A stretch of 64,000 nucleotides of DNA from Candidatus Peribacteria bacterium (GCA_043776335.1 JAYVRL010000011.1:23643-87642), one strand, 5' to 3'; counted from the stretch's first letter, positions 15,997 through 36,419 are shown. Translations and numbers: made by a program. The notes: generated from the sequence alone by a model not told the origin.

Positions 15997-16452
15997 ATGG
16001 ATGAAGTCGAAGTCGAGATCAATAACAGCGGCGGGAAGGCGATCATTGAGGGTAAGACATCGATCCCCTTCAAGACCTTCGTGAGTTTGGTGCTCCAGCG
16101 CAAGGTGCAGGCCATCTTCAAGAAGTGTCAGGACGAACCCGTGATCGTGAGCAGCGAACTGTTGACGTCTCTTGCCAGTGCTCCGAACGACCGTCAGGAA
16201 GACAAAGGAAAACTCGTGATCGTCACGATCGGCGTCGGTATTTTGCTCGGCGCATTTTTCACGATCGCGCTCTTCGCGATCCTTATTTTGTTTGGCATTC
16301 ATCCCGAGCTCAAGGATCTCGGCATCGCACTCGGATCGTTGGCCTTCGTCGGCGTCGTGCTCGTGATTCTTCAGAGCACGCAGAAGAAGAGCGGATTCAA
16401 AGAGAAGTTGTACGAATCGATGGAGAAGGTCACTGACCTGATCGCGAGATAG
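15997..16452 (+). CDS. Hypothetical membrane protein
   Basis: Two hydrophobic helices (LVIVTIGVGILLGAFFTIALFAILILF and GIALGSLAFVGVVLVIL). GC3-rich. Abuts murB. No family recognised. Confidence 0.6.
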   Translation: MDEVEVEINNSGGKAIIEGKTSIPFKTFVSLVLQRKVQAIFKKCQDEPVIVSSELLTSLASAPNDRQEDKGKLVIVTIGVGILLGAFFTIALFAILILFGIHPELKDLGIALGSLAFVGVVLVILQSTQKKSGFKEKLYESMEKVTDLIAR

Positions 16453-17547: not shown

Positions 17548-18399
17548 CTAGAACGGCAAGTCTTCCGCTTTGATCTCGGATTCATATTTGATCTCGGGCA
17601 TCGAAGCTGCGCCGACTGAGGCACCGACGGGTGCGGCGGACGAACGCGGCATGCTTGAGCCTTCGGATGACATCGCGCTCATGGCCTCAACGCTGCGTTG
17701 GCCGAGGAGCGTGACTTGATCCGCGATGATCTCGGTCGTCGCGCGCTTGGAGCCTTCTTTCGTCTCCCACGTGCGCGTTTGGACGCGACCGGCGACGAAG
17801 ACGCGCTGACCTTTTTTCACGGATTGCTGGACGGCTTTCGCGAGGTCGCCCCAGATGACGACGTTGTGGAACTCGGCGCGCTCTTTCATTTCGCCGGAGG
17901 CTTTGTCTTTCCACTTTTCATTCGTGGCGACTCCGATCGTGAGCACGCTCTGACCGCCGGTCGTCGTGCGCATCTCGGGTTCGCGCGTCACGTTGCCGAT
18001 GACTTCGGCGCGGTTCAGATAATTGAGCAACGGCGCGGCGCTTGCGGGAGCCTCGGATTGGCCGTCTTTCGGATCGAGCATGATGAGATCCATCGCAACG
18101 ATTTTCGTCTTGCTGCGCTTTTCTTTCGTTTTCTCGTCATCCCAGCTGTCCGTCTGGAGACGACCGGAGACGAAGAGCTGCGAGCCCGCACGGACATATT
18201 GTCCGGCGACATCGGCCATGCTGCCCCAGACCGTGACGGTGTGGAAACTTTTGCCTTGGATGGCGTCTCCTTTCGTCGAGAGGAAGGAATACGGAACGAC
18301 GATATTCAAATCGGTCACGCTGGCGCCGCCGGGCGTTTGGCGGAGAGTGACGGGTTGTGTCTGGTAGCCGATGATTTCTACTCTGTTGAGTGAGAACAT
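17548..18399 (-). CDS. ssb: Single-stranded DNA-binding protein with two tandem OB folds
   Basis: Two SSB-like modules (NRVEIIGYQTQ...FHTVTVWG...VSGRLQTDSW and NRAEVIGNVTR...FHNVVIWG...VAGRVQTRTWE) plus an acidic tail ending EDLPF. The 654-aa track ORF is an antisense run-on; the true start is ATG 18399. Confidence 0.88.
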   Translation of the reverse strand: MFSLNRVEIIGYQTQPVTLRQTPGGASVTDLNIVVPYSFLSTKGDAIQGKSFHTVTVWGSMADVAGQYVRAGSQLFVSGRLQTDSWDDEKTKEKRSKTKIVAMDLIMLDPKDGQSEAPASAAPLLNYLNRAEVIGNVTREPEMRTTTGGQSVLTIGVATNEKWKDKASGEMKERAEFHNVVIWGDLAKAVQQSVKKGQRVFVAGRVQTRTWETKEGSKRATTEIIADQVTLLGQRSVEAMSAMSSEGSSMPRSSAAPVGASVGAASMPEIKYESEIKAEDLPF

Positions 18400-18588
18400 C
18401 ACTGAGTGGGGAATGGAAGTAAAGGAGGCTGTTGGGCCGTGTTCGGGAATCCGAACGTGAACGAACGTACACCCTTGGATTTTCATGCACAATCGAAACC
18501 GATTGATGAAAAATATTTTTAGTTTTTGATAGTACTTTTTTGGAGTCGCGCGCGTAGGTCTCTGCGGAAAAGTGCAGTACACTCTGAT

Positions 18589-21500
18589 GTGATTTTGCCG
18601 CCGCATTTCCTTCGTTTCGGTTCTCCGATGTTCCAGCGTTGCATTCTTCTTTCTTTGGCGCTCGCCTCGCTGACACTTGCGTGGCCCGCCGATGCGACTT
18701 TTTTCGAGCCGAAGATGGGTGATCCGCAGACGTACAAAGACATTCAGGACGGCACGCAGGAAGTGAGAGACAACATCGCGTCGGTGTCGTGCGGCGGATG
18801 GTCGGTCACGGGCGGCAAAGCGAACGGCGTTTCCGTTACGGGCGACATTCCGATCCCCGATCTCGGACATGATTTGCCCGGTCGCACGAACAGCAATCCG
18901 TTGTTCGATCCTCCGAACGGCGTCGGGCAGCGCAGCAATTTCGAATTTCCCGACACCACGTTCGGGTACAAATCTTCGTGCGACATTCTTCTCGACAAAA
19001 TGTACGACCCCGATCTGGCCAAACTGAAACCGCCGAAAGATATCATTCTGAAAGTCGACGGCGACGATCCGGGCTCCGCCGTTTCCGTGGAGATCAAAGA
19101 CGGCGCGGGCTTCATCGACGTGAATCCGAAACATTGGTGCGTGCGTTACGACAAAGCCGTGCCCGTGTGGTGCAAGAAGCTCTACGAAGAAGCGTGGCCT
19201 GCCCTCGCCGCCGCCGCTCATTCCCTCCTCGGTCGCAATACGTTTTGCCCCGATCCTCCCGCGGACGCGCTCTGGGCGCCGACGTACGTCGACAAACATT
19301 TTTGCATGGATCGTGCTCCGGCGATCTCGGACACGAACGTGTGCATCGGTCAAGAATGCCGCACGACGTGGCTTCCGGAATTCGAAAACTATATCGCCGA
19401 CTGCGCGTGGCAAGCCGCTTTCGACGCCGACGGGAATTACATCGGTCAGGTGCCCGTTGATAATCCCGCAACGACTCCGAATGGCGTGATCGGCGGGTAT
19501 GAGTTCGGACAATCAAGTTCGTACTATCGGCACTATGCCGGCGGATACATGGAACCGGGAGTGCATGTGAACGCTCCGGGCGGCGGCGGCACGTGGAACA
19601 TCCGCGCCGAGTGTTACGAATATTACAAAGAGGACGATCCGAGAGATTTCATCACGTCCAATGAAGGCGGCGGCAAAGACAACGACGAGCAGTGCGAGTT
19701 CGTCATCCATGATCCGTACAGCGAGCAAAATCCGAAGTCGCCCGAGTGGGATCCCGGAGATCATCAGCAAAAGGAAAACGTCCCCGTTCCGCCCGCGACC
19801 GATCCTGCGCGCGATCCGAGGTCGGCGCCCGATCCGTGGGTCGTCGATGACAGCACAAACCTGTCGGTCATCGACGTGAAGAAACTCCAAGATCTTCAGA
19901 AAGCATTCGATGACCCCGCTGACATCACGGGTGTCGTCGGCGCCATCATTCCGATCAAACTGCGTGCGACGCAGATCACGACGACCGATCACGCCCGCAC
20001 GGATATTTTCGACGATACCGATCATCGCGGTCTCGGGGATTTCTGGGAGAGACAGGAGAAACTTCTGCAGAAGATGGTTGTGAATCCGACGACGCGTCTT
20101 CTGATGCCCGCGCGGTTCCTCGTGGGACTCAACGAAGACAATCCGCTCTTCCAATATGTGAGAGGCATGGTCTCCAAATCGAACGGCACGGTGGAGTTGA
20201 CCCTGCGCGCAGGGCCAGAAGATCTCGGCAATGCGTTGCAATCTCTCATGAAAACATACGTCATGCCGATTCGCGAAGTTCGCATCCCGATTCTGTTGCC
20301 CTTGATGTCCGACGAAGAGATCAACGCGCGTATTTTCGATTGGCAACAATGGAAGCAACTCGAGGACAAAGATGCCGCCATTCAGGGTCGCGCGTCATTT
20401 TCCGGAGACGCGGATCCGCTCATCGCGAAGTTGCAGAACTACAAAGCCAACATTCAGCAACAGCGCGCCCTCAGGAACGCCGTCGATCGTGAACTGACGA
20501 GACTCTATGATCCCGTCCGCCAATTCGAACGGTTTATCGCCGACTGGTATCAGAGCAACACGTCCCTTCTGCAACAGGCGGCCGTGCAGGCCAAGCAGGG
20601 CCAGCAGCTGAAGCGGATCTGGCGTCATGTGCAAAACTCGATGCTCGAGGCGGATGCGTGTCAGCTGCAATGGTGCTCGAACATGCGGTACTCGCCTCCG
20701 ATTTATTCGTTGCTCGACAACTGGTGGGCGGCCGAGGGACAGCCGCTGCATGCGAGTCGCGATCAAGGTTTCCAGCCAGACAGTCTGGAGTCCGTGCCAT
20801 TCACTCCGGCGATCGATCAAATGTATGATTTTTCTTTCATCGATTTTCCGGCGACGGAATTGCTCATCCCTGTGCTCGCGCCGATTCAGGTGAAAGTGAA
20901 GCTGCCGATCCCTCCGATGATCGGTTCCAAGCCGCAGGATCCGACGGATTTTCCGGACTTGCCGAATTTGCCCGATGCGTCGGTCTTTGACGCGTTTCCG
21001 ATGCCGACCGTGCATGTGCCCGCGCAGGAATTGTTGCAGCTTCCGCCGGCGCAAGATTTGTCTGCAGCCAAAGATATTCTTCGCAAATTTCGCAAGATCG
21101 TCGACGGCAAGTCCGTGAACGATCAAATCGATGAGGAAAATGCGGAAGAGGCCAACGGCGGCATTCCGTACGATGAAGGCATGAATCCCACGATGGACCG
21201 GCACACGATGGTCGGTGCGTATTGTCGCTTCATTCCGAGCATCATGATTCCGCCGGATCCTGAGGAAAAGCACGGCAATCCCGCCAAGATTTTGCACGTG
21301 GAGAACGATCTCCGCGAACGCGCGGCGCGTCTTTTCTCACGCTGGCTCCCCGAGCGATTCGAAGATTACGCGGGTCGCATGGCGCGACTGAACAGGGATT
21401 TCCCCGCACCCGCGAAGCCCCCGTGCAAAGAAGACATCATTTGCATGTTCCTGCCGGCCGAGAAGACGACGACGGTGAAATGGCAGATGTTCTTTCTGGA

Positions 21501-21669
21501 CAATGCCACGGATTTCAATTCTTTCGGGGACAACCTCAGGAACCTGACTCTTCCGCTCAATGAGATCGACAATCCGTACGGCACCGCGACGATCAAAGTT
21601 TTGAAACGATTGTTCCCCAACATCGATTTTCCGATCACCGTCAATCTGAGTCCTTCCTCCCCCGCATGA
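18589..21669 (+). CDS. Large secreted Cys-rich hypothetical protein (cluster protein 1)
   Basis: Signal peptide ...MFQRCILLSLALASLTLAWPADA, about 17 Cys and no recognisable domain. Start is GTG 18589 (TACACT 5 nt upstream) or ATG 18628. The stop overlaps the next ATG (ATGA). Confidence 0.8.
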   Translation: MILPPHFLRFGSPMFQRCILLSLALASLTLAWPADATFFEPKMGDPQTYKDIQDGTQEVRDNIASVSCGGWSVTGGKANGVSVTGDIPIPDLGHDLPGRTNSNPLFDPPNGVGQRSNFEFPDTTFGYKSSCDILLDKMYDPDLAKLKPPKDIILKVDGDDPGSAVSVEIKDGAGFIDVNPKHWCVRYDKAVPVWCKKLYEEAWPALAAAAHSLLGRNTFCPDPPADALWAPTYVDKHFCMDRAPAISDTNVCIGQECRTTWLPEFENYIADCAWQAAFDADGNYIGQVPVDNPATTPNGVIGGYEFGQSSSYYRHYAGGYMEPGVHVNAPGGGGTWNIRAECYEYYKEDDPRDFITSNEGGGKDNDEQCEFVIHDPYSEQNPKSPEWDPGDHQQKENVPVPPATDPARDPRSAPDPWVVDDSTNLSVIDVKKLQDLQKAFDDPADITGVVGAIIPIKLRATQITTTDHARTDIFDDTDHRGLGDFWERQEKLLQKMVVNPTTRLLMPARFLVGLNEDNPLFQYVRGMVSKSNGTVELTLRAGPEDLGNALQSLMKTYVMPIREVRIPILLPLMSDEEINARIFDWQQWKQLEDKDAAIQGRASFSGDADPLIAKLQNYKANIQQQRALRNAVDRELTRLYDPVRQFERFIADWYQSNTSLLQQAAVQAKQGQQLKRIWRHVQNSMLEADACQLQWCSNMRYSPPIYSLLDNWWAAEGQPLHASRDQGFQPDSLESVPFTPAIDQMYDFSFIDFPATELLIPVLAPIQVKVKLPIPPMIGSKPQDPTDFPDLPNLPDASVFDAFPMPTVHVPAQELLQLPPAQDLSAAKDILRKFRKIVDGKSVNDQIDEENAEEANGGIPYDEGMNPTMDRHTMVGAYCRFIPSIMIPPDPEEKHGNPAKILHVENDLRERAARLFSRWLPERFEDYAGRMARLNRDFPAPAKPPCKEDIICMFLPAEKTTTVKWQMFFLDNATDFNSFGDNLRNLTLPLNEIDNPYGTATIKVLKRLFPNIDFPITVNLSPSSPA

Positions 21670-22397
21670 AGTCATTGCAAGCGCGCATCGGCCTGATCGT
21701 CGCCGGAAGCATCTGCGTTTCTGCTGTGCTGACGGGTTCGGGCAGCGCGCAGGTCACCGCGACCAAAGAGGGTTGTCGTGCGCGCATCGTCGATGAGCTC
21801 AGCGCCGCGCAGCTTGAGTATCGCGCTCACGTTTTCGGTTCGCGCAAAGACCGTGACAACACATTCACGGTGCTGACCGGCGGGGAGACGAATGCTCAGT
21901 ATCGCGGCATTTTCGAAACCCAAGGGAGACTGACGTCGGAATTGGTCTGGCCGCTCGTCGAGAGCTATCGCGTTCTCCGATGCAGAAGCACGGCCGTGTG
22001 CGAAGCGGCGAAACAATCGTTCGGCGTGACGAATCAAATGCTGAACGTTCGGCCCATCGGTTGTGAGCGTCAGCAGATTCAAAGTTATGACGAATGCAGC
22101 TTCATCAGTTCCGCCGGCACCGCGCCGCAGTCCGATCTTGCGGGCGTGCAGCAAGAATGCGGGGTTCTCGTCGGAGAATCGTTGAAGGCCGAGAGGTCGG
22201 TGTTGAGATTGGCCGTGAGTTACGACAGCGGATATCGCGCGGCTTTGCAGCTTGGCGGGATGATCGATTGGATGCAGGAAGATCTTCCGAGCAAGGCGCT
22301 CAAACCGGTGCGTGACATGATCAATCTTCTTGGCAAACTCCACGAAATTCCCTGTTTCATAGGCGAGTGTGACAGCCCCGATACTTCCGGTCTCTGA
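21666..22397 (+). CDS. Secreted Cys-rich hypothetical protein (cluster protein 2)
   Basis: Signal peptide MKSLQARIGLIVAGSICVSAVLTGSGSAQV. Nine mature-region Cys. ATGA-coupled to protein 1. Confidence 0.75.
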   Translation: MKSLQARIGLIVAGSICVSAVLTGSGSAQVTATKEGCRARIVDELSAAQLEYRAHVFGSRKDRDNTFTVLTGGETNAQYRGIFETQGRLTSELVWPLVESYRVLRCRSTAVCEAAKQSFGVTNQMLNVRPIGCERQQIQSYDECSFISSAGTAPQSDLAGVQQECGVLVGESLKAERSVLRLAVSYDSGYRAALQLGGMIDWMQEDLPSKALKPVRDMINLLGKLHEIPCFIGECDSPDTSGL

Positions 22398-22400
22398 TCC

Positions 22401-23372
22401 ATGAACATTCGTTCCCTCCTCGTCGGCTTCAGAACAACGCTTCCTCTTCGAGTGAAGAAGCACGGCACGATCATCGCGGTTCTCACGCTTCTTCTGATCG
22501 TCGGTGTTTCGTCGAATGTGATCGTGAAGATGCAGCCGGCCCACGGTCAGATCCCCGGAGCCGGAGGGAGTTCCAGCAGTGCGGACGAGAATTTGCGCGC
22601 GTGCAGCTCCGTCGGGACGATTTTTGAAAACGTGTACAACCTGACGGATGTCATGGCGCTCTTCAAACAACGGGCGTCCGGAGTCGTCAAAGAACGCGAA
22701 GATTTTCTCATGACGCCCTCGAAGTGGCAGTGTTTGCCGGGTCAAACGGGCAGCGCCGATCCGCCGATGCCGCAGCTTCAGCAGCTTGCGGCGAATATGC
22801 CCGGTTGGTATTTCCGCTACGGGACGCCCGGAAACATGACGACGATTTTCAAGCCGGTGTCCTTCACCGCGTTTTCTTCGGTCCTCGGCGAATTTGAACG
22901 GGAGTACGAGTGCAAACTCTCGGAGTTTCAAGTCAGCGCTTTCGCGGACGTTGCGATCAACAATGATTTGAAAACCGGCGAGCAACCGCCGAATCAATTT
23001 TGTTGCGATGTCTCCACCAATACATGCGTCCTCGCGACGGATCCGACGTATTGCTCGAGCCCTCCGACGGACGACGCCCAATGCAACTTGGCGTGCGATC
23101 TCGGTCCGACGATGTATGACTTCGGCACTCGCCCCCTTCCGTATGTGCAGCTGCAGCTTGTGGAGCGCCAGCGTGCCCGGGTCGCCGTGGAACGAACGAT
23201 CTTGGCGATGCGTTCGTTTGAGATCAACTACGCCTACGCCAAGCAACTCACGTGTTTCCAGCGCGCGTCCCTCGACCTGAAGAACGAACTCGGGTTGCTC
23301 GCCGACACCACCAGTTGCATGCCGAGAATTTGGGACGCAGTGACTTCGCTTCACGACCGCAAAGGCCAATGA
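22401..23372 (+). CDS. Membrane-anchored Cys-rich hypothetical protein (cluster protein 3)
   Basis: N-terminal signal-anchor GTIIAVLTLLLIVGVSSNVIV and 12 Cys, including a CCDVSTNTCVLATDPTYC cluster. Starts 3 nt after the protein 2 stop. Confidence 0.75.
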   Translation: MNIRSLLVGFRTTLPLRVKKHGTIIAVLTLLLIVGVSSNVIVKMQPAHGQIPGAGGSSSSADENLRACSSVGTIFENVYNLTDVMALFKQRASGVVKEREDFLMTPSKWQCLPGQTGSADPPMPQLQQLAANMPGWYFRYGTPGNMTTIFKPVSFTAFSSVLGEFEREYECKLSEFQVSAFADVAINNDLKTGEQPPNQFCCDVSTNTCVLATDPTYCSSPPTDDAQCNLACDLGPTMYDFGTRPLPYVQLQLVERQRARVAVERTILAMRSFEINYAYAKQLTCFQRASLDLKNELGLLADTTSCMPRIWDAVTSLHDRKGQ

Positions 23373-25183
23373 AATACGCGCGCATCCTCGCATCGGCATC
23401 ATTGATTCTCCTGTTGCCCCAAGCAGTCGGAGCCCAGTCGATGTTCGACATCTTCTTCGATGATGCGAAGCGGACCAAAATCAACGTGTATCCTAGCCAG
23501 AAGGTCAAAAAGTTCATCGTGGATGAAATGCAAGACTGGGAAGGAAACGGCATTCAATTGGTCTCCGGCGATATCAACGCTGCGGTGGACAACAAAACGG
23601 CGACGGACAACAATGACGGATTGTGTCAGAACAAAGTCGACGCGTCGGGCAACGATCTTGAGCTGTCGCAGGAGAAATGCGCGGATCTCAGAGACGCCAT
23701 TCTTTCTCTCGTGAAAGACGAAGAACAGGCGGATGCGCTGGGCGATGATCTTATCGCCGCGGCCAACGGATCCGAGCTCGCCACCGCCGATGAGCCCCAT
23801 CGTCCCGTGAAGATGGGCACGCTCAGTTTGCTGATCAAACGTGTGTGGTCCGGCACCGGCGTCAGCATCATTCCGTGGGACGGCACCGCGGACAGTGAGG
23901 TGTCGACTCTCGAGGGAGCATTGAACGGACTGAGCCCCGACGAGCTGGAGGAGGCGGTGCTTCGCTACCATCACGGCTATTTCCGGGACCAACGCGAAGC
24001 GGATCCGAGATTCTCGGGAATCGCGAACTCCGTGGGGAATGCGCTTTCGCAAATCGCGAGCAAACTTTCCATCAACGGCGAACCGAAAGACACGGGCGAA
24101 TTCGCCACGCCGAAATTGCAAGTGAAGAACGTGGCTCTGTGGGCGAGAAAGGATGATCTCGGCATCCAGTGGGTGTATCCCGAGCACAGTCTGCGACTGA
24201 AGGTGAAAAGGGCGGATCAGTATCCGTCGCTGTTTCAGGGCGCGGGCAGCGGCATGCTCGCATACCCCTTCGAATTTGAAGGCACGACGGCACCGACCGA
24301 TGCGGGCCTGAAGTCGCCGCTGTGCAGTCGCACGACCGGTGTCCACGGTTATCTCTGTCATCCCGTGTCGCTGACGACTCCCGAGTGCAACAATGACGCG
24401 CCTGACACCATCAATCTTGTTCTGTGTTCCAAAAAAACGAAGCAGACGGTCGCGGGTCCGGACGCGTGTTCCGATTTCAAAGACCTCTTCCTCGACGACG
24501 GTCAGCCGATCCTCGATCCCAATGATTCGGCGCGCATCAATCCGAATCTGACGCAGGCTGACAAGGCCAAGGTTTGTTCGCCTGACACGAAAATTTTGTA
24601 TCAGGACGACATCAGCGCCCATGCGTGCTACATCAGTCTCTGCGTCGCTCAGTCGATGAGCGGGCACACGTTGGTGCCGAATCGCAACACGGTCGTCACC
24701 AACGAAGCGACATCGCCGTATCTCTCCTGCATTCGCGCCGATCCTCAACTCGGCCTCTACAGTGAGAGCGCGGTGAAATCTCCGTTTCCGCTTCCCGCAT
24801 ACGTCGGAGACAAATTAGTGCAGGATTTCGAACGCGAGTATTGCTTGAAGAACGGCGATGCCGCGAGACCGACACTCGGAGACTGCATCTTCAAGACGGA
24901 TCAGGTGGCCAATTCTCCGTCCATTGCTCAGGAGAGAGTGATGTACAGGATCGTGACGGAAGCGAGTCAGGTCGCGCAAGATCAGGATGCGTTCTTATCC
25001 CTTGCGAGCGCGATCGGTCAGCGAGCGGCGCTCGATCAGACCGTGTTGATGGAGCAGAAATTGTTCGCGTCCGTCGCGCAATTCATCCAGCAGATGGCGG
25101 ATCTGTTTCTGGAGCTGAAGCGCGCTCCGGTCACGACCGTCGCTTGTCCGTGGACGGGGCCTTTCCATGAACTTGGCAAATAA
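23369..25183 (+). CDS. Secreted Cys-rich hypothetical protein (cluster protein 4)
   Basis: Signal peptide MKYARILASASLILLLPQAVGAQS. About 14 Cys. ATGA overlap with protein 3. Confidence 0.78.
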   Translation: MKYARILASASLILLLPQAVGAQSMFDIFFDDAKRTKINVYPSQKVKKFIVDEMQDWEGNGIQLVSGDINAAVDNKTATDNNDGLCQNKVDASGNDLELSQEKCADLRDAILSLVKDEEQADALGDDLIAAANGSELATADEPHRPVKMGTLSLLIKRVWSGTGVSIIPWDGTADSEVSTLEGALNGLSPDELEEAVLRYHHGYFRDQREADPRFSGIANSVGNALSQIASKLSINGEPKDTGEFATPKLQVKNVALWARKDDLGIQWVYPEHSLRLKVKRADQYPSLFQGAGSGMLAYPFEFEGTTAPTDAGLKSPLCSRTTGVHGYLCHPVSLTTPECNNDAPDTINLVLCSKKTKQTVAGPDACSDFKDLFLDDGQPILDPNDSARINPNLTQADKAKVCSPDTKILYQDDISAHACYISLCVAQSMSGHTLVPNRNTVVTNEATSPYLSCIRADPQLGLYSESAVKSPFPLPAYVGDKLVQDFEREYCLKNGDAARPTLGDCIFKTDQVANSPSIAQERVMYRIVTEASQVAQDQDAFLSLASAIGQRAALDQTVLMEQKLFASVAQFIQQMADLFLELKRAPVTTVACPWTGPFHELGK

Positions 25184-25184
25184 C

Positions 25185-26822
25185 ATGCGTCGTTTTTTCC
25201 TCCTCATCGGCCTTCTCCTCATTCCCACCGCGGTGTCGGCCGCCGCGTTGTCTCCGTGGGTCGATCATGTGATTTCCCGCGCTGAGAATGCGAAGAGTTT
25301 CGCTCTCGGATTGCCAGTCGGGAGCTGCGAAGATGTCGCAGTGATGCAGGAAATCGAGAATAATCTCAGCCTCGTTCGGTCATCCGTGAATGCCAGCGTC
25401 GATCTCGCGCAGGAAGCGCAATTTACGAAGGAACGCACGGTGTGTTTCCAAAGTGATCGACGATTGCTCGAGGATGAGCTGAAGAAAATTTTGGACGCGC
25501 TGAACGGCACCGCCGCCTCTTGCAATGCGCAGGCCGCCACCGCGCTCCGCGAGGATTATGCGTTCCTCGCCGACGCCTATCGATCCTTCCTCCGCGGTTC
25601 GGCAGATCCGGGATTCAAAGACGACACCCTTTGGTATACGTATCCGTTTGAAAATCAGACTCTCTGGGACAACGGATCCGAGAAAGTCTACGACGAGAAT
25701 TCGACCGAACCGCTCTGTCCGTACACCACTGATTACGGTCCGCATGCCATCGCCTACATTCCCGCATCAGGAGCGGTGGGAGTGGGCAGTCCGTCTTTTG
25801 ACATCAAGAGTTACGGTTGTGACAAAGAGACGATCAACGCGCTTCCTTTGGGCATTCCGATCGAGATGTCGGATTTCACGGACTTTCTCGACCATACCGA
25901 CTCTTTGGCTTCGGATTTATACACGCTGATCAGCCAAACGCTCTTCAACATCAACAGCACGATCGCGATTTTGACGTCGAAGACTCCTCCGACTCCTCCG
26001 ACGGGCGCGGCTTCGCCCCCTCCTCATGCCGTCGCGAGCGGCTGTCTTCGTCCGCCATCCCCCGAGCTTGGCGGTGGGGGCGATCCTGCCGCGGTCGATC
26101 AGATTCTCGACTCGTACCCCGATTATTTCGATGAGAAAAATCTGAGAATCGATCCGGCAACGGGCCAGCCGACGTTCAATCCTCCGCAAGATTTGTTATT
26201 GCCGGTCGGGATGCTCTTTCGGCCGACCACTGATTTTTTCCTGTCCATGCCGAATGCACTCATTCTCAGTCGCGCGTTCATCGCGAAGCAGAACGATGCG
26301 GGTTTTGATCGACCGTTGCCGAATTGGGCGACGGGCACGAACTACGACGATATGTTTCAGGTCGTGAGTCGCATGGTCGACAGTCCCGACATGTTGCGCT
26401 TTATCTCCTCCAACATTCAGGGGGAATCCGGCTTCTATGACGCCGTCGGCCGAGACAGTTACGAGCGCAACGGGGAGGCCGCAAAACCGCTGGAGAAAGC
26501 CGTGCAAGCGCTCTCCGATATCACCGAGAATTATTTCCCGAAAAAGTACGTGCCGCAGGTCACGTATTTGCTTCTTCGTTCGTGCGTCGACGCCCATTGC
26601 CAGAAGACGCTCGACACCGTTGCGCGTCGCATTTTGAATCCGTTCTGCCACCCCTATGTTTCCGGCAAATACACGGATCAGAAACTGGCGGACAAATGTT
26701 TCTGCAGAAACGGTTTTGAGAACGAGAATTTTTGCATGGGCCAGTCGAACATGGGTTCGCAGCCCGATGCGGAGTTGCAGTGCGGAGAGCCGACATCCTC
26801 TTCTTCCTCGGCGGGTCCATAA
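25185..26822 (+). CDS. Secreted Cys-rich hypothetical protein (cluster protein 5)
   Basis: Signal peptide MRRFFLLIGLLLIPTAVSAAA. About 13 Cys and a Pro-rich linker TPPTPPTGAASPPP. ATG 25185 lies 1 nt after the protein 4 stop; ATG 25167 is the alternative. Confidence 0.78.
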   Translation: MRRFFLLIGLLLIPTAVSAAALSPWVDHVISRAENAKSFALGLPVGSCEDVAVMQEIENNLSLVRSSVNASVDLAQEAQFTKERTVCFQSDRRLLEDELKKILDALNGTAASCNAQAATALREDYAFLADAYRSFLRGSADPGFKDDTLWYTYPFENQTLWDNGSEKVYDENSTEPLCPYTTDYGPHAIAYIPASGAVGVGSPSFDIKSYGCDKETINALPLGIPIEMSDFTDFLDHTDSLASDLYTLISQTLFNINSTIAILTSKTPPTPPTGAASPPPHAVASGCLRPPSPELGGGGDPAAVDQILDSYPDYFDEKNLRIDPATGQPTFNPPQDLLLPVGMLFRPTTDFFLSMPNALILSRAFIAKQNDAGFDRPLPNWATGTNYDDMFQVVSRMVDSPDMLRFISSNIQGESGFYDAVGRDSYERNGEAAKPLEKAVQALSDITENYFPKKYVPQVTYLLLRSCVDAHCQKTLDTVARRILNPFCHPYVSGKYTDQKLADKCFCRNGFENENFCMGQSNMGSQPDAELQCGEPTSSSSSAGP

Positions 26823-26862: not shown

Positions 26863-29800
26863 GTGAAAGCCTCCGACTTCGTTCATCTGCATTGCCACTC
26901 CACGTTCTCTCTTCTTGAGGCCGTGCCGACGCCCGAAGAGATCGTTTTGCGTGCCAAAGAGCTCGGCCAGAACGCCGTCGGAATCGCGGACAAGGGATAC
27001 ACGTACGGCCTGATCGAGTTTTACAAGGCGTGCAAAAGCCACGGTCTCAAAGCGATTCTCGGGCTTGAAACGTACGTCGCAGCCCGCACGCGTTTTGACA
27101 AAGAAAGTTCGTCCGACACGCGCAGATATCCGCTGGTGTTGCTTGCCGCGAACGAAGAGGGTTACCAAAATCTTCTCGAACTTGCGACGAAGGCCGCGCT
27201 CGAAGGAATGTATTACAAACCTCGCGTCGATGCCGAACTGTTGAAGCAGTACGGCAAGGGTTTGATCGCGCTTTCGGGTCCGATCAGCGGCTCCATTCCG
27301 CAGGCGGCGCTCGCCGAGGATTTCGACCGAGTGAAGACCATCACCGAGCAGTATCGATCGTTCTTCGGTTCGGAGAACGTGTATTTCGAACTGAACGAAT
27401 TGCCGAACGTGCCGGGACAATCCGAGGTCAATCAACAGTTGATTCGCTGCGCGAAAGAATTGAGCGTGCCGCTCGTGGCGACCTGCAACAGTCACTATTG
27501 CCGCACCGAAGACGCCGAGGCGCATGACGTCTTGCTCTGCATCCAGAAGAACGCCAACGTCGGCGATACGGGAAGATTTTCGATGATGAGCAGCGACTTT
27601 TCAATGCGTCCGTTCGAAGAAATGGAGAAAGCATTCGCGCATGTCCCCGAGGCCCTCGAGAACACGCGCGTCATCGCCGATCGATGCAATCTGAAGATTC
27701 CGTTCGGCGATTATAAAATCCCGAGTTTTCCCGTGCGACAAGGTGAAACGGAAGAATCGCTGTTGAACGAGCTCTGCGAAGTCGGCCTGAAGCGGCGTTA
27801 TGCGCACATCATCGCCAAGGCTCCGGAGCGCGAAAAAGAAATTCGCGATCGTCTCGTGTACGAGCTCGGCGTCATCAAGAACATGGGGTTCTCCGGTTAC
27901 TTTCTCATCGTCGCCGACTTCATTTCCGAAGCGAAAAAACGCGGCATCACGGTCGGCCCCGGTCGAGGCTCCGCGGCCGGCTCCATCGTGAGTTACGTGC
28001 TTGATATCACGACGCTCGATCCGCTGGAACACGGCTTGCTCTTCGAAAGGTTCTTGAATCCGGAACGCATCTCTATGCCCGATATCGACATCGACTTCGC
28101 CGATACGCGCAGAGACGAAGTGCTCGAATACGTCCGCGGCAAATACGGCGCGGATCGCGTGATTCAAATTTGCACGTTCGGAACGCTCGCCGCCAGAGCC
28201 GCCGTGAAAGACGTCGGCCGCGCGTTCGGCGTCTCGTTCGCCGAGATGAACGCGCTCGCGAAGCTGATCTCCGATCGTCCCGGCACGGAGCTGGCCGAAG
28301 CGATGGAAACCGACGAGTTGAAAGACGTCGTCGCGACGAACGAGACGTATCGCAAGATCATCGACGTTGCGCTGAAACTCGAAGGCAAAGCTCGACACGT
28401 CTCCGTGCATGCGTGCGGTGTCGTCATCACACCAGAGCCGGCAGTGAAATACACCGCTTTGCAGCGCGCGCCGAAAGACGAAAACACCATTATCACGCAG
28501 TACGATGCCAAGCCTTTGGAATCGTTGGGACTCCTGAAAATGGACTTCCTCGGCCTCAAAAACCTCACGATCATCCAGACGGCGCTTTTGATCATCGAGC
28601 GCATGCATGACGTGAAGATCGACATCGCCACGATCTCGACCGATGACAAGAAAACATTCGAGCTCCTCGCGCGCGGGGAGACGACGGGCGTCTTTCAGCT
28701 CGAGTCCGCGGGCATGCGCAGATACTTGAAGCAGCTGAAGCCGACGGTCGTGGATGACATCACGGCCATGGTGTCTCTGTACCGTCCGGGTCCGATGGAC
28801 AAAATCCCCGATTACATCAAATGCAAACACGGCGAGAAAGAAGTGACGTACTTGCACCCCGATCTCGAGCCGATCCTGAAGCCGACGTACGGCGTCGGCA
28901 TTTATCAGGAGCAGATTTTGGAAATGGCCAAAGTCTTCGCGGGATTCTCGCTCGGCGAAGCGGATTTGCTTCGTCGCGCCATCGGCAAGAAGATCAAGAA
29001 AGAGCTGGATGCGCAGCGTGAGAAATTCATCAAAGACGCGATGGCTCGCGGGTACACGCAGAAGCTCGTGTCCACGCTGTTCGACGACGTCATCACCCCG
29101 TTTGCAGGCTACGGCTTCAACAAATCGCACGGCGCGTGTTACGCGCGCATCGCGTACGAAACCGCGTATTTGAAGGCGCATTACCCGACGGAATTCATGG
29201 CCGCGCTGCTCAGCAGCGAGAATGGCGACACGGACCGCATCTCCATCGAAATCGAAGAGGCGCGTGCGATGGGACTCGATGTGCTGCCGCCGGATATCAA
29301 CGAATCGCTCGCGCACTTCACGGCTCTGCCGAGCGGCAAGATCCGTTTCGGATTGCTCGGGATCAAAGGAGTCGGTGAGAGCTCCATCCGTCAGATTCTC
29401 GCGATTCGCGACGGTGAGGACGGCAAAGATCGCATGCCGTTCGCGTCGATCGAAGATCTGGCCACTCGCGTGCCGAGCAAACTTCTGAACAAGAAATTGT
29501 TGGAGTCCCTCGCGAAAGCCGGTGCGTTCGATTCGCTCGGAGAACGGGCGATGCTCGTGAGTCAGTACGACAAAGTCGCGGAATTCAGCAAATCCACGGG
29601 CGATGCGGGCCTTTCGCAGACGGGGATGTTCGAATCGCTCGGTGCCCAGAGTGACGGCGCGGCGCTGGCATTCGACAGAGTCGAGCCCGCCACCGCGTAT
29701 CAGAAGCTCCGGTGGGAGAAGGAAACGCTCGGGCTCTACGTTTCCAGTCATCCGCTCGCGGGCCTCAAGAAGTACATCAGCAAGAAAGCCCGTCTCATCG

Positions 29801-30636
29801 ACACGCTGTCGGGCGACGATCTCAATCGCAAAGTGACGGTCGCGGGCATCCTCGAGCAGACCAAGCTCATCCACACGAAAAAGGGCGACACGATGGCGAT
29901 CGTCACGATCGAAGATCCGACCGGCCGCATGGAGGTCACGTTGTTCCCCCGCACGTATGCGCAGTGCAAGGAAATCCTCGAGAAGCCCGATTCCATTTTC
30001 GTGTTCGCAGGGACGCTCGACATGCGCATGGGCGCTCCGCAGTTGAAAGCCGAGGCCGTGAAACGCGTTTCACTTGAGGTGATGGTGCAACATGCGAAGG
30101 ATGAGAACATGTTCAATGAAGAAGAGGCGAAGCATTGGAGCGCCGCGGGCAGACGCAAAACGGAAGAAGAAACGGTCGAGCTTGGCACGGATGAAGATGT
30201 GCTTGCACCCACATCCCCCGTTGAGGTGCTTGTGACGCCCACGGACAGTGTCGCGGGCCCGCTTACCGCGTGGATTCGTGAGGGGATGCCGACGGCAGAA
30301 CCTCTCAAGAAAGTCGGGCTTTCGGGATACTTGATCCGCGAAGCGGATAGTGGCGAACCGATAGCGGAGAACGCAATGGTAGAGAGAGAAGAGACAGACG
30401 TGTCTACCCGCTCACCGCTCACCGCTACACGCTCGATTTCCATCCACACCGTGACGCTCCCAGCCCGTGCGCCGAAACAACTTCTTCTCGATGTGAAATC
30501 GATCTTCGAAACGTTCCCGGGAACTGAAAAAGTGCAGCTCCGGATCGGCGAAAAAACGGTGCCTGTCGGCTTGACGATCGCGATGTCACCGCTTCTTGAA
30601 AAGCGGTTGGAAGAGGCCCTCAAGCGTCACGCATAG
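26863..30636 (+). CDS. dnaE: DNA polymerase III alpha subunit
   Basis: PHP domain FVHLHCHSTFSLLE, GPGRGSAAGS, MPDIDIDF, LLKMDFLGLKNL, FNKSHGACYA and an OB-fold region. GTG start. The C-terminal tail carries repeat copy B. Confidence 0.95.
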   Translation: MKASDFVHLHCHSTFSLLEAVPTPEEIVLRAKELGQNAVGIADKGYTYGLIEFYKACKSHGLKAILGLETYVAARTRFDKESSSDTRRYPLVLLAANEEGYQNLLELATKAALEGMYYKPRVDAELLKQYGKGLIALSGPISGSIPQAALAEDFDRVKTITEQYRSFFGSENVYFELNELPNVPGQSEVNQQLIRCAKELSVPLVATCNSHYCRTEDAEAHDVLLCIQKNANVGDTGRFSMMSSDFSMRPFEEMEKAFAHVPEALENTRVIADRCNLKIPFGDYKIPSFPVRQGETEESLLNELCEVGLKRRYAHIIAKAPEREKEIRDRLVYELGVIKNMGFSGYFLIVADFISEAKKRGITVGPGRGSAAGSIVSYVLDITTLDPLEHGLLFERFLNPERISMPDIDIDFADTRRDEVLEYVRGKYGADRVIQICTFGTLAARAAVKDVGRAFGVSFAEMNALAKLISDRPGTELAEAMETDELKDVVATNETYRKIIDVALKLEGKARHVSVHACGVVITPEPAVKYTALQRAPKDENTIITQYDAKPLESLGLLKMDFLGLKNLTIIQTALLIIERMHDVKIDIATISTDDKKTFELLARGETTGVFQLESAGMRRYLKQLKPTVVDDITAMVSLYRPGPMDKIPDYIKCKHGEKEVTYLHPDLEPILKPTYGVGIYQEQILEMAKVFAGFSLGEADLLRRAIGKKIKKELDAQREKFIKDAMARGYTQKLVSTLFDDVITPFAGYGFNKSHGACYARIAYETAYLKAHYPTEFMAALLSSENGDTDRISIEIEEARAMGLDVLPPDINESLAHFTALPSGKIRFGLLGIKGVGESSIRQILAIRDGEDGKDRMPFASIEDLATRVPSKLLNKKLLESLAKAGAFDSLGERAMLVSQYDKVAEFSKSTGDAGLSQTGMFESLGAQSDGAALAFDRVEPATAYQKLRWEKETLGLYVSSHPLAGLKKYISKKARLIDTLSGDDLNRKVTVAGILEQTKLIHTKKGDTMAIVTIEDPTGRMEVTLFPRTYAQCKEILEKPDSIFVFAGTLDMRMGAPQLKAEAVKRVSLEVMVQHAKDENMFNEEEAKHWSAAGRRKTEEETVELGTDEDVLAPTSPVEVLVTPTDSVAGPLTAWIREGMPTAEPLKKVGLSGYLIREADSGEPIAENAMVEREETDVSTRSPLTATRSISIHTVTLPARAPKQLLLDVKSIFETFPGTEKVQLRIGEKTVPVGLTIAMSPLLEKRLEEALKRHA
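30342..30433. repeat. Inverted heptamer-array element, copy B (inside dnaE)
   Basis: Left arm agcggat|agtggcg|aaccgat|agcggag. Right arm ctacccg|ctcaccg|ctcaccg|ctacacg (30404-30431), in 7-nt phase. Translated in frame as ...EADSGEPIAENAMVEREETDVSTRSPLTATRS... Confidence 0.65.
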
Positions 30637-32286: not shown

Positions 32287-32385
32287 CAGCGAGCGTGTAG
32301 CAAGTAGCGGATCGTTTGTCGGTGCGGCTTTTCACTCGTTGCTAGTTTCTACCCTCTACCTTCTAACCGCTACCTGCTACCCGCT
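32284..32385. repeat. Inverted heptamer-array element, copy C
   Basis: Left arm tagcagc|gagcgtg|tagcaag|tagcgga. Right arm ctaccct|ctacctt|ctaaccg|ctacctg|ctacccg (32349-32383). Lies between the nrdR stop and the aspS promoter. Confidence 0.7.
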
Positions 32386-32392
32386 TCTTCGG

Positions 32393-32398
32393 TATACT
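32393..32398 (+). promoter_or_regulatory. -10 TATACT 6 nt upstream of the aspS ATG
   Basis: cggTATACTccccgcATG. No SD is present. Confidence 0.5.
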
Positions 32399-32404
32399 CC
32401 CCGC

Positions 32405-34168
32405 ATGCTTCGTACCCACACCTGCGGCGAACTGACGACCAAGAACGTCGACGGCACCGTCACGCTCTGCGGTTGGGTCAACACGCGACGCGATCACGGC
32501 GGGCTGATCTTCATCGATCTCCGAGACCGATACGGCCTGACGCAGATCGTGTTTCACCCCGAGCAAGCTGCGGAGGTTTTCAAGCTCGGTGAGACCGTGC
32601 GCCCCGAGTGGGTGCTCAGGATCACGGGTACGGTGTCGAAGCGCCTCGAAGGGACGGAGAACGCCAAGATGCCGACGGGACAGATCGAGATCGTCGCGAC
32701 GAAACTGGAAGTTCTCAGCCGCGCCAAAACGCCGCCGTTCGAGATCGACTCCGAGAAAACGGTGAACGAAGAATTGCGTCTGCAGTATCGCTACCTCGAC
32801 ATGCGTCGCGCCCAGATGCAGCGCAACATCGCGCTCCGATCTCGCGTTTTTCAGATCATTCGCAAGTACTTCACCGATCAGAATTGTCTCGAGATCGATA
32901 CGCCGTGTCTGATCAAAGGCACGCCCGAAGGCGCGCGAGAATACATCGTCCCGTCGCGCGTGTATCCCGGCAACTTCTTCGTGTTGCCGCAGAGTCCGCA
33001 GCAGCTGAAGCAGCTGTGCATGGTCGGCGGTCTCGACAAATATTTTCAGATCGCCAGATGTTTCCGCGATGAAGATCTGAGAGGCGACCGTCAGCCCGAG
33101 TTTTTGCAGCTCGACTTCGAGATGAGTTTTTGCGAACAGGCGGACGTGCAGGCGGTGATTCAGGGTTCCATCGAGCAGATCATTCGCGAGTGCAGCCCGA
33201 AGAAATTGAAGTGGGGCACAGTCGAGAGCTTCACGTGGCAGCACGTGATGGACACCTACGGCTCGGACAAACCGGATCTTCGTTTCGATCTGCCGATCAC
33301 CGATGTCTCGGATCTGTGCGCGGGGTGCGGCTTCAAAGTCTTCGAGGATGCGCTCGCCGCCAAAGGCGCTGTCAGAGCCCTGAGAGTCCCGGGAGGATCG
33401 GTGTTGGCACGGAGTGAGATCGACACGTGGACGGAGCTTGCCAAAGAGCTGAAGGCCAAAGGCCTCGCGTACATTCTCTTTAAAGAAGAGGGTCCGCAAT
33501 CGCCGCTCTTGAAATTCTTCAAGCCCGGCTTCCTCGAGAAGTTGATCGAAAAAACCGGAGCGCAAACTGGCGATGCGCTCTTCTTCGGCGCCGACAAAAT
33601 CAAGATCGTCTGCGCGTCCCTCGGCCGCATCCGCCTCGAAGCCGCCAAGCGGTTCAACCTCGTCGACACGTCCGTGCATGCACTCTTCTGGGTCACGAAT
33701 TTCCCGATGTTCGAGGAGAATGACGACGGCACGCTCACGTTCAGCCATCATCCGTTCACGAGTCCGAACATCGAAGAGTGGAAACATCGCAAAGAAAGCC
33801 CGCTCAAAGTGCATTCCGTCTGTTACGACCTCGTGCTCGACGGCTACGAGCTCGGTTCCGGTTCCATTCGTATTCATGATCCCGTGTTGCAATCCGAAGT
33901 CTTTGAAATGCTCGGCATCAACAAAGAAGATCAGCAGAAACGTTTCGGGCACATCCTGAGCGCGTTCGAATACGGCGCTCCCCCGCACGGCGGCTTCGCA
34001 TACGGCATCGATCGCGTCGTGATGATCCTCGCGGGCGAACCGAACATCCGCGAGGTCACGCCCTTCCCGAAAGATCAGAAAGCCAAAGATCTGATGCTCG
34101 GCGCTCCATCCCCCGTCCCGTCGCAACAGCTGAAAGAATTGCGCCTGGCGCTCGAAGATCTCGAGTAG
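32405..34168 (+). CDS. aspS: Aspartate--tRNA ligase
   Basis: N-terminal OB MLRTHTCGELT...GWV, class II motifs FRDEDLRGDRQPEF and GGFAYGIDRVVM. Confidence 0.95.
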   Translation: MLRTHTCGELTTKNVDGTVTLCGWVNTRRDHGGLIFIDLRDRYGLTQIVFHPEQAAEVFKLGETVRPEWVLRITGTVSKRLEGTENAKMPTGQIEIVATKLEVLSRAKTPPFEIDSEKTVNEELRLQYRYLDMRRAQMQRNIALRSRVFQIIRKYFTDQNCLEIDTPCLIKGTPEGAREYIVPSRVYPGNFFVLPQSPQQLKQLCMVGGLDKYFQIARCFRDEDLRGDRQPEFLQLDFEMSFCEQADVQAVIQGSIEQIIRECSPKKLKWGTVESFTWQHVMDTYGSDKPDLRFDLPITDVSDLCAGCGFKVFEDALAAKGAVRALRVPGGSVLARSEIDTWTELAKELKAKGLAYILFKEEGPQSPLLKFFKPGFLEKLIEKTGAQTGDALFFGADKIKIVCASLGRIRLEAAKRFNLVDTSVHALFWVTNFPMFEENDDGTLTFSHHPFTSPNIEEWKHRKESPLKVHSVCYDLVLDGYELGSGSIRIHDPVLQSEVFEMLGINKEDQQKRFGHILSAFEYGAPPHGGFAYGIDRVVMILAGEPNIREVTPFPKDQKAKDLMLGAPSPVPSQQLKELRLALEDLE

Positions 34169-34198
34169 TCGTTTTCCGCAGACGCAAGGGCTGAAGTG

Positions 34199-34207
34199 TG
34201 GTATACT
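34199..34207 (+). promoter_or_regulatory. Extended -10 (TGgTATACT) 6 nt upstream of ATG 34214
   Basis: gtgTGgTATACTggggagATG. Confidence 0.5.
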
Positions 34208-34213
34208 GGGGAG

Positions 34214-35948: not shown

Positions 35949-36414
35949 GCGGTACATTACGAAGAGCAAGAATTTTCTCGAAGGAGGGAACACGTACAGG
36001 AAGAAATGGCGGAGATTCATCGGTGTGAAAAAAAAGATTCCAGGCAAAAAGTCTACCAGACGCGCTTTGGCCTTTCAATTTGCATCCGAAAAGCTCCGTC
36101 GCCGAGTTCGTTCTGCGCCGACGTCTCATCAGGAGGTTTTCTCCTCCTCTTTTTGTCGGCTGTTTTGGATCCGAAGACCAGTTTGCCTTCTTTCGTCGTG
36201 ATTTTTCGGTGTTGCCGCCGTCTTTCAAGTTTTGATTGGCAGCTTCCAGCAACGCGGCCACGGCTTTTTGCGCCTCAGCCGACAATTCTTTGTACGCCGC
36301 GTTCAGCGTCTCCAAAGACGGGGGCATGAAGGCGATTTCCTTGCCGTTGAGCGCGCGGGTTTTCCTGTCGACTTCGAGCACGTCGGCGACGTATTTGTCG
36401 ATCATCGTTTTCAA
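35833..36414 (-). CDS. Hypothetical protein; only the first 70-95 codons look coding
   Basis: Starts 6 nt after the stop of the 36420-38135 gene. The N-terminal MKTMIDKYVADVLEVD...AVAALLEAANQNLKDGG region is GC3-rich. The R-rich remainder loses the GC3 bias and overlaps the methyltransferase start. Confidence 0.35.
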   Translation of the reverse strand: MKTMIDKYVADVLEVDRKTRALNGKEIAFMPPSLETLNAAYKELSAEAQKAVAALLEAANQNLKDGGNTEKSRRKKANWSSDPKQPTKRGGENLLMRRRRRTNSATELFGCKLKGQSASGRLFAWNLFFHTDESPPFLPVRVPSFEKILALRNVPHAISDAQNVPRSDRRRLPPFGLRRARMSPPARRGIRTL

Positions 36415-36419
36415 CTTTT

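Follow-up and report, generated by a model that had tools for sequence, protein, structure and literature searches.

A conserved five-gene operon of Peregrinibacteria encoding a candidate membrane-anchored extracytoplasmic complex

Five consecutive plus-strand genes, here called G1 to G5, are located between ssb and dnaE in a 64,000-nt stretch of the genome of a Candidatus Peribacteria bacterium (GCA_043776335.1 JAYVRL010000011.1:23643-87642), which at its full length is referred to as the window. By sequence for all five products and by predicted fold for G1 and G4, the operon stands outside the known kinds of system. Its products are predicted to be exported, carry a highly conserved set of cysteines and probably form one membrane-anchored complex. 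The explanation as a whole, a constitutive, Peregrinibacteria-specific extracytoplasmic complex for external contact, is close to an even call, and contact with or attachment to a partner cell or surface as the actual job of the complex is held slightly more tentatively.

Organization of the five genes

An open reading frame (ORF) scan of the window places the five genes at 18628-26822. The genes and their flanks are as follows.

18628-21669, + strand: G1, 1013-aa secreted protein; signal peptide at residues 1-23 (nt 18628-18696), mature part with 16 Cys
21666-22397, + strand: G2, 243-aa secreted protein with 8 exported Cys; start overlaps the G1 stop (ATGA)
22401-23372, + strand: G3, 323-aa bitopic membrane protein; transmembrane segment at residues 23-41 (nt 22467-22523)
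23369-25183, + strand: G4, 604-aa secreted protein with 14 exported Cys; start overlaps the G3 stop (ATGA)
25185-26822, + strand: G5, 545-aa secreted protein with 13 exported Cys; 1-nt gap after the G4 stop
17548-18399, - strand: ssb, left flank of the five genes
18400-18627, no strand: divergent intergenic spacer between ssb and G1, 228 nt, including an A/T-rich stretch; presumed operon promoter region
26863-30636, + strand: dnaE, right flank of the five genes

Five same-strand genes between ssb and dnaE had been described in an earlier, sequence-only reading of the window, and all ORFs as well as both flanks are present. That reading had given product sizes of about 1013-1026, 243, 323, 604 and 545 aa. 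These sizes hold, with G1 now resolved to 1013 aa, because an independent gene call in two assemblies with identical DNA returned products of 1013, 243, 323, 604 and 545 aa, and the N-termini of orthologs agree with a G1 start at 18628 and not at the GTG at 18589. The same two lines of evidence set the start of G5 at 25185 (545 aa). As each ORF has tens of protein-level homologs, the ORFs are real and not chance reading frames.

The genes are joined start to stop, by ATGA overlaps at 21666 and 23369, by a 3-nt gap between G2 and G3 (TGA-TCC-ATG, 22395-22403) and by a 1-nt gap between G4 and G5 (TAA-C-ATG, 25181-25187). This coupling is exactly as had been claimed for the window, and comparable junctions are found in relatives; in distant ones they mostly range from -11 to +5 nt, with one exception of 71 nt. 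Judged from these junctions, the five genes probably form one transcript. The earlier claim of one transcript with stoichiometric co-translation stands as far as the tight coupling is concerned, whereas "stoichiometric co-translation" overstates what a start/stop overlap implies. In the ssb-G1 spacer, where the promoter is presumed to lie, a simple scan found no sigma-70 consensus promoter, and promoter and terminator scans returned nothing exceeding shuffled expectation. Since no terminator was found in the 40-nt gap between G5 and dnaE, the transcript may run through into dnaE.

Distribution and synteny among Peregrinibacteria

G1 has 38 clusters of close homologs with 36-60% identity, and the named ones all belong to Candidatus Peribacteria or Peribacteraceae; 65 homologs were found for G4. 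A search of 1.84 billion representative proteins with a hidden Markov model profile of G1 yielded 214 clusters, of which 146 reached E<=1e-30, and the distant named homologs derive from "Candidatus Peregrinibacteria bacterium" and from Peribacteria RIFOXYC2_FULL_58_10. With a G2 profile, 92 homologs were obtained, each at E<=1e-39 and each lacking both a name and a Pfam domain. Because there is no match between E 1e-39 and the cut-off, the G2 family is sharply bounded. Scanning one genome per GTDB species detected 30 loci, all in metagenome-assembled genomes of Peribacteria or Peregrinibacteria.

The order G1-G2-G3-G4-G5 on one strand was found by tblastn in every locus of sufficient length. 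Counted here are 25 complete non-redundant operons, among them that of the window, from a set that includes the 30 GTDB species genomes, plus the distant loci L039-L045, and the five-gene unit is recognisable down to about 20-30% identity across Peregrinibacteria. Co-conservation and gene order in relatives had been proposed as a check on the earlier description, and the five genes turned out to occur always together and in the same order in all loci that are long enough. The operon is single-copy and universal among the relatives examined. In the complete genome of Candidatus Peribacter riflensis it corresponds to ORFs 963-967 (1030, 279, 263, 821 and 521 aa), which are again located between ssb and dnaE and are annotated as "hypothetical protein".

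In relatives, the operon is preceded by lspA, ftsW, murG, a peptidyl-prolyl isomerase gene, gltX, a gene for a small transmembrane protein, murB and the oppositely oriented ssb, and followed by dnaE and sua5. All annotated relatives have a spacer of about 200-250 nt between the divergent ssb and G1. The right-hand neighbour is variable, with an extra Laminin_G_3 gene in L005 and L023, insertions in L034 and L035, an inverted dnaE in L027 and no nearby dnaE in L038. This variation indicates that the conserved unit consists of the five genes. The GC content at third codon positions (GC3) of the five genes is 0.67-0.70, the same as in neighbouring genes, and GC is flat over the region, in line with the previous claim of native codon usage without an obvious island.

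Measured against the window, orthologs of the five proteins have median identities of 38-46%, compared with 51-52% for MurG and Sua5, 60% for MurB, and 76-78% for DnaE and FtsW. From this comparison with housekeeping proteins, the five proteins are moderately constrained and not hypervariable. Ortholog sizes range from 882 to 1836 aa for G1 and from 599 to 986 aa for G4, and are far less variable for G2 (235-314 aa) and G3 (248-356 aa).

Comparison with known families and folds

None of the five proteins has a match near threshold in Pfam or NCBIfam (best E>=0.017, far under the curated cut-offs), PHROGs and PADLOC gave zero matches, and phage and plasmid collections contain no match to them. 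In Pfam, neither SLH (PF00395) nor peptidoglycan-binding, POTRA or LysM domains were found in the five proteins. Sequence and profile searches against the PDB with all five families, including a deeper G2 profile, remained at E>=0.4. When eight divergent, longer orthologs were compared with Pfam, nothing was found except one DUF4215 repeat in one G5 (L044). Paralogy among the five proteins was also rejected, since hhalign probabilities are <=15% for all ten pairs.

AlphaFold2 models were obtained for G1 from an alignment of 37 sequences (predicted local distance difference test score, pLDDT, 74; predicted template modelling score 0.60) and for G4 from 63 sequences (pLDDT 71.6; predicted template modelling score 0.58). 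Foldseek searches with the G1 model gave no match below E=2 in the PDB and none below E=0.9 in BFVD, and the G4 model had no match below E=2 in the PDB. Thus, the claim that no family is recognisable is borne out by sequence for all five proteins and by predicted fold for G1 and G4; profile and structure searches, which had been suggested as a check on it, produced no confident match in Pfam, NCBIfam, PHROGs, PADLOC or PDB, nor with the folds of G1 and G4. The lack of known relatives is less surprising here, as uncharacterised lineage-specific genes are common in genomes of the candidate phyla radiation (CPR). A description of the operon was not found in the literature; its genes have been sequenced and deposited many times as hypothetical proteins only.

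The best Foldseek matches of G1, which are insignificant, are KH-like or PII-like alpha/beta modules of about 64 aa (window 20092-20307, residues ~489-560; E ~2-5, TM-score ~0.5, probability 0.33) and the type III secretion protein EscJ. A ring-building motif in G1, as the match to the ring protein EscJ might suggest, was rejected on account of this insignificance and is a weak lead only.

Export and membrane anchoring

The N-termini of G1, G2, G4 and G5 start with a few basic residues, followed by a hydrophobic core some 10-15 residues long and an AxA-like or small-x-small site, which corresponds to a Sec-type signal peptide, and the hydrophobic signal peptide is kept in all orthologs of these four proteins. 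G3 has a different layout, with residues 1-21 rich in R, K and H, followed by a single transmembrane helix at residues 23-41 (mean hydropathy 2.6) without a cleavage motif. This N-in (type II) signal-anchor layout is common to 36 orthologs. The export calls are based on a hydropathy heuristic together with conservation in orthologs, and they agree with the earlier assignment of four Sec signal peptides and one N-terminal anchor (22401-23372).

Other modes of export or attachment were searched for in all five proteins. A hydropathy scan revealed no further hydrophobic segment, and neither a lipobox ([LVI][ASTVI][GAS]C) nor an LPXTG-type C-terminal motif or hydrophobic tail nor a Tat motif was found in any of them. 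The first 60 residues of the five proteins contain no prepilin leader motif, and there is no Pfam match to pilins either. G3 is therefore predicted to be the sole membrane anchor among the five proteins.

Conserved cysteines and protein architecture

G1 to G5 contain 17, 9, 11, 14 and 13 Cys in total. As one Cys each of G1 and G2 is located inside the signal peptide, the exported parts have 16, 8, 11, 14 and 13, so that the range of 9-17 given earlier for the exported parts is correct for the totals and has to be lowered to 8-16. The Cys fraction of the five proteins is 1.7-3.7% compared with 1.2% in a roughly called gene set from the window, which amounts to about 1.5-3 times the background, and Peribacteria proteomes are reported to contain 1.67% Cys (PMC4736985). 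Cys enrichment is thus only moderate; more striking is how invariant the cysteines are. In G2, the 8 exported Cys are kept without exception (36/36 orthologs). The exported domain of G3 has 5 core Cys that are likewise invariant (36/36) and an insert with 6 further Cys (residues ~195-235, nt 22983-23105), and 11 of 14 Cys in G4 and 8 of 13 in G5 are invariant. The description of the proteins as disulfide-rich therefore stands with respect to conserved cysteines of the disulfide type, whereas "Cys-rich" is a modest distinction in a phylum with an already Cys-rich proteome.

Within the larger proteins, the following parts can be distinguished.

18808-19752, + strand: G1 N-terminal beta-rich domain, residues 61-375 (AlphaFold2 secondary structure)
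20008-21666, + strand: G1 conserved core, residues 461-1013; alpha/beta module, three long helices (562-680), Pro-rich extended segment and helical C-terminal part
24659-24748, + strand: G4 segment SGHTLVPNRNTVVTNEATSPYLSCIRADPQ, residues 431-460, including C454 (codon 24728-24730); conservation 0.73-0.81, pLDDT 31-38
26736-26819, + strand: G5 C-terminal tail, residues 518-545, with the single Cys C533 (codon 26781-26783)

In the G1 model, the beta domain is followed by a Pro/Asp-rich low-confidence linker that leads to the alpha/beta module. Insertions of >=20 aa (at most 189 aa) in G1 orthologs are all located in the N-terminal domain, after residues 1, 65, 198, 232, 241, 263 and 273, and at four of these seven sites the inserted sequence has 6-20% Cys. 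Within G1, conservation is lowest in the N-terminal domain (0.55), which shares 17-22% identity with distant orthologs, and for most distant homologs the alignment does not begin before profile position ~280. These properties suggest that the N-terminal beta domain is a distal, outward-facing module. C678 and C866 of G1 are missing jointly in the same six genomes, and C933 and C939 are missing jointly in L038, which points to intramolecular disulfides C678-C866 and C933-C939.

G4 is the best conserved of the five proteins. Its model is mostly helical with a 65-residue C-terminal helix, and its invariant charged or polar residues include E118, R206, R439, E446, D458 and E466. The G4 segment 431-460 is a putative partner-binding segment and interchain disulfide site, and the G5 tail may accordingly serve as a tailpiece for an interchain disulfide to C454 of G4.

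Evidence bearing on assembly of the five proteins

The number of exported cysteines follows a regular pattern. It is even for G1 in 24 of 25 operons, always 8 for G2, and odd for G3 in 36/36 orthologs (5, 7 or 11), where the parity stays odd because the optional insert always adds 2 or 6 Cys. In the closer clade, G4 and G5 have 14 and 13 or 13 and 12 exported Cys, respectively, and the five-protein total is even in 24 of 25 operons. C454 of G4, which is embedded in the conserved motif EATSPYL[AS]C, and C533 of G5 occur together in 23 genomes and are jointly missing from 4 (L019, L034, L035 and L038), with no discordant case. G5 of these four genomes lacks the tail together with its Cys, and C454 is replaced in exactly the same four. 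On a tree of concatenated proteins, L019 is placed apart from the other three, indicating at least two independent C454/C533 events. Further metagenome loci are all concordant for these two residues and add no new independent gain or loss.

The same co-loss criterion also yields intramolecular pairs, namely C48/C113 in G5 and C171/C182, C678/C866 and C933/C939 in G1, and the recovery of such sensible pairs validates the approach. When the C454-C533 pair is subtracted, G4 retains 13 Cys and G3 has 5 or 11, and since both numbers are odd, the simplest explanation would be an interchain disulfide between G3 and G4. Blocks 131-150, 321-330, 431-460 and 591-600 of G4 are among its most conserved and yet poorly modelled in the monomer (pLDDT ~31-51), and residues 933-960 of G1 are similar; such low-pLDDT segments are as expected if they fold on a partner.

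Evolutionary rates of the five proteins covary as well. The residual rate correlation among G1 to G5 averages r=0.61 (G4-G5 0.87, G1-G5 0.81, G1-G4 0.77, G3-G4 0.75) compared with 0.03 for correlations with controls, after species divergence had been regressed out by means of six neighbouring housekeeping proteins. Since only 10 genomes were included and their pairs are not independent, this result lends support but does not decide the matter. The membrane-tethered multi-protein assembly that had been proposed for the five genes thus gains support from Cys parity, the co-loss in G4 and G5, conserved segments of low pLDDT and rate covariation, and it remains an assembly deduced from these patterns.

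A proposed model and its alternatives

The proposed model, in which we infer co-transcription, physical assembly, specific disulfides, orientation and function, is as follows. Transcription would start from a promoter in the ssb-G1 spacer, and translation would be coupled where stop and start codons overlap or abut. Export of all five products via Sec would be followed by oxidative folding. G3 would be retained in the membrane by its N-terminal signal anchor and act as the tether, and G4 would be covalently linked to it, one Cys being left over in each of the two after internal pairing. In the clade of the window, G4 would also be linked to the C-terminal tail of G5 via a C454-C533 disulfide. 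G1 and G2 would be bound non-covalently because of their even Cys numbers. The membrane-proximal core would consist of G2, G3 and the C-terminal two thirds of G1, which are conserved and constant in size. The outward-facing parts would be the variable N-terminal beta domain of G1 and, in other lineages, also G4 and G5, which vary in size there.

The role of such a complex could be physical contact with a partner cell or surface. Conserved surface machines serve attachment in other CPR bacteria. A contact role is favoured because of this precedent, the variable distal modules on a conserved core and the inferred symbiotic lifestyle. For Peribacteria, a symbiotic life has been inferred, together with a large investment in surface proteins, a gene for one disulfide-bond-formation protein and the lack of fatty-acid synthesis (PMC4736985).

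Several observations weigh against this model. With regard to assembly, the rate covariation in 10 genomes could reflect the shared extracytoplasmic location, and the Cys parity equally fits G3-G3 or G4-G4 homodimers or free thiols. L039, L040, L042 and L043 have a Cys at G4 column 454 although their G5 is without the tail, so that the rule is perfect only in the closer clade, and odd Cys totals occur in L029, L041 and L042, which may stem from the placement of the signal-peptide cut. With regard to attachment, the operon is a single-copy, universal element amid housekeeping genes (ftsW, murG, murB, ssb and dnaE), the five proteins evolve only slightly faster than MurG and Sua5 (38-46% vs 51-52% median identity), and no known adhesin fold was found among the folds of G1 and G4.

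The same observations could point to a housekeeping envelope scaffold, which would link the membrane to peptidoglycan or a surface layer (S-layer) or serve the wall-synthesis or division machinery and have no role in cell contact. Its universal, single-copy occurrence at a fixed chromosomal place by the genes lspA-ftsW-murG-...-murB, its evolutionary rate near that of MurG and Sua5, the bitopic N-in topology of G3, which is typical of divisome and elongasome adaptors, and the wall-anchored SLH-type surface-layer protein encoded elsewhere in the window would all fit such a scaffold. There is, however, no operonic link to the wall genes, since ssb intervenes on the opposite strand, and the whole block is conserved phylum-wide, so that adjacency says little about function. 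Moreover, the large Cys-rich insertions in G1 and the size variation of G4 are more typical of exposed surfaces, and domains that would contact the wall or its machinery (peptidoglycan-binding, SLH, POTRA, LysM) were not found. This explanation is rather unlikely. A scavenging or enzymatic machine that takes up or processes an external resource such as lipids or wall precursors, akin to surface lipid-uptake proteins of wall-reduced or auxotrophic bacteria, is quite improbable. Peribacteria are without fatty-acid, cofactor and most amino-acid synthesis (PMC4736985), and a universal, essential-looking surface machine would fit these auxotrophies; the many invariant charged or polar residues of G4 (including E118, R206, R439, E446, D458 and E466) would also be in keeping with such a machine. 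Nevertheless, a catalytic or transporter motif or domain was not found in any library, the folds of G1 and G4 have no match in the PDB, and neither a membrane permease nor an ATPase is encoded in or beside the operon.

Operon membership alone proves no complex, and because assembly is deduced indirectly, the five products might also be co-regulated but independent secreted proteins that share an operon and a compartment. This is very unlikely in view of the strict gene order, number and coupling across very deep divergence, the persistently odd Cys count of G3 and the correlated gain and loss of cysteines in G4 and G5, to which the unmodelled conserved segments in the monomers and the covarying rates can be added. 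Mobile, viral or defence-island cargo that came to lie between ssb and dnaE by chance would be compatible with the lack of annotation only. The native GC and GC3, the fixed position in all relatives and the lack of PHROG, PADLOC, phage or plasmid matches as well as of a BFVD fold match for G1 leave it a negligible probability; composition, position and these database negatives were the grounds for rejecting a phage, plasmid or defence-island source. A membrane-anchored complex of the five proteins remains the probable reading, with external contact as its tentative purpose.

Relation to known systems

Large, very Cys-rich extracellular proteins of the DUF4215 or Myxococcus cysteine-rich-repeat type have been published for Peribacteria; they contain 2.4-11% Cys, have 580-3860 aa and are strain-variable (Anantharaman et al. 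2016, PMC4736985). The five proteins resemble the DUF4215-type proteins of Peribacteria in that they occur in the same organisms, are exported by Sec, presumably have structural disulfides and have been suggested to act at the surface. Cys-rich insertions have also been gained by some G1 and G5 orthologs, and G5 of L044 has one DUF4215 repeat. In contrast, the five proteins of the window have 1.7-3.7% Cys and no DUF4215 (PF13948) repeat, occur in a constant order and are universal. Identity with the published very Cys-rich proteins was rejected, as ORFs 963-967 of P. riflensis are not in Table S4 of that study (PMC4736985).

More distant parallels are provided by systems of other organisms, and all of them differ from the five-gene operon in essential points. 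G3 shares the N-in topology with a single transmembrane segment and an extracytoplasmic domain with the divisome adaptors, and the operon is located near ftsW, murG and murB. FtsQ/DivIB, FtsL and FtsB are bitopic divisome or elongasome adaptors encoded in division and cell wall (dcw) clusters. These adaptors are, however, not disulfide-rich and are without four large secreted partners, and a POTRA, FtsQ or DivIB domain was not detected in the five proteins. The chlamydial outer membrane complex (OmcA/OmcB/MOMP) is a disulfide-cross-linked envelope network of Cys-rich exported proteins. It is likewise a lineage-specific envelope structure with intermolecular disulfides between co-encoded proteins, which for the five proteins are proposed here from sequence. 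In contrast to the operon products, with which it has no sequence relation according to Pfam, it belongs to a diderm outer membrane, is far richer in Cys and is anchored by lipoproteins and porins and not by a bitopic protein such as G3.

The Plasmodium PTRAMP-CSS-Ripr-CyRPA-RH5 complex and the herpesvirus gH/gL pentamer are membrane-anchored, disulfide-linked five-protein entry complexes. By analogy to the architecture proposed here, these have a single-pass anchor, a covalently bound secreted partner, further Cys-rich subunits that are held non-covalently and one of which has about 1000 aa, and a distal part that varies. The differences are that there is neither homology nor a fold match, that Foldseek matches to viral spikes have E ~3-9 with probabilities <=0.04, that the organism is a bacterium, and that binding or fusion is hypothetical here. 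It is an unlikely idea that the operon encodes a new kind of cell-surface machine, a membrane-anchored five-protein apparatus linked by interchain disulfides and with folds without known relatives, that docks onto partner cells and possibly exchanges material or fuses with them, and that as an analogue of parasite and viral entry complexes it is a defining envelope organelle of the phylum.

Significance

Peregrinibacteria are a widespread uncultured branch of the CPR. All related genomes and metagenome loci examined contain the five-gene module, and outside the phylum no named organism has it. It is a strong candidate for a structure that defines how Peregrinibacteria interact with their surroundings, because it is vertically inherited, exported and seemingly covalently assembled, and because its families are unrelated to anything characterised. 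The genes could be used as a phylum marker and their products as antigens for labelling and sorting of cells, and among the five proteins as structural targets there are two moderately confident models. The predicted disulfides between G3 and G4 and between C454 of G4 and C533 of G5 can be tested by mass spectrometry.

Accessory and neighbouring genes

Between G5 and dnaE, lineage-specific genes occur in some relatives. A sixth gene, overlapping the stop of G5, is present in L005 (18855-22286), L006 and L023; its 1143-aa product contains a Laminin_G_3 (concanavalin-like lectin) domain and might bind carbohydrates as an accessory to the complex in this one lineage. Unrelated insertions are found in L034 (17971-20535) and L035 (12082-12627), both with an RRM-like RNA-binding protein and L034 also with a 631-aa AAA/OLD-like ATPase that looks defence-like. 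Genes at this position (Laminin_G_3, RRM-like, AAA/OLD-like and SLH-like) were rejected as functional hints to the operon, being unrelated and lineage-specific.

Upstream of the operon, the window's ssb (17548-18399, - strand) encodes a 283-aa protein with two SSB/OB-fold domains per chain, as do relatives. SSB proteins with two OB folds are best known from Deinococcus-Thermus. Between gltX and murB, a 151-aa membrane protein without a Pfam family is encoded at 15997-16452 (+ strand), and its position is kept phylum-wide (42-71% identity).

Several other genes of the window concern the cell envelope or differ in composition from their surroundings. The gene at 38592-40241 (+ strand) has a 549-aa product that is exported and contains SLH domains (E 1.6e-17), indicating that the organism has a wall-anchored protein of the surface-layer type. 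The gene at 44111-45892 (+ strand) codes for 593 aa with 14 Cys and three repeats of the Myxococcus-type cysteine-rich domain DUF4215, a kind of protein described for Peribacteria, and is followed at 45889-47046 (+ strand) by an overlapping gene for a 385-aa protein without Cys that has a weak match to sigma-70 region 4. An ORF of 571 aa at 36420-38135 (- strand) has zero Cys and no Pfam match and lies in the bin 36001-38000, which shows the strongest AT skew of the window (-0.32). Rfam matches in the window were confined to tRNAs. The gene for an APH-type phosphotransferase at 7655-8689 (- strand) has a GC3 of 0.41 compared with 0.6-0.75 in most neighbours and adjoins tRNA-Arg at 8725-8799; it may have been horizontally acquired. 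Finally, a 789-aa ORF with a hydrophobic N-terminus and without a Pfam family at 32363-34732 (- strand) is a further uncharacterised envelope candidate.

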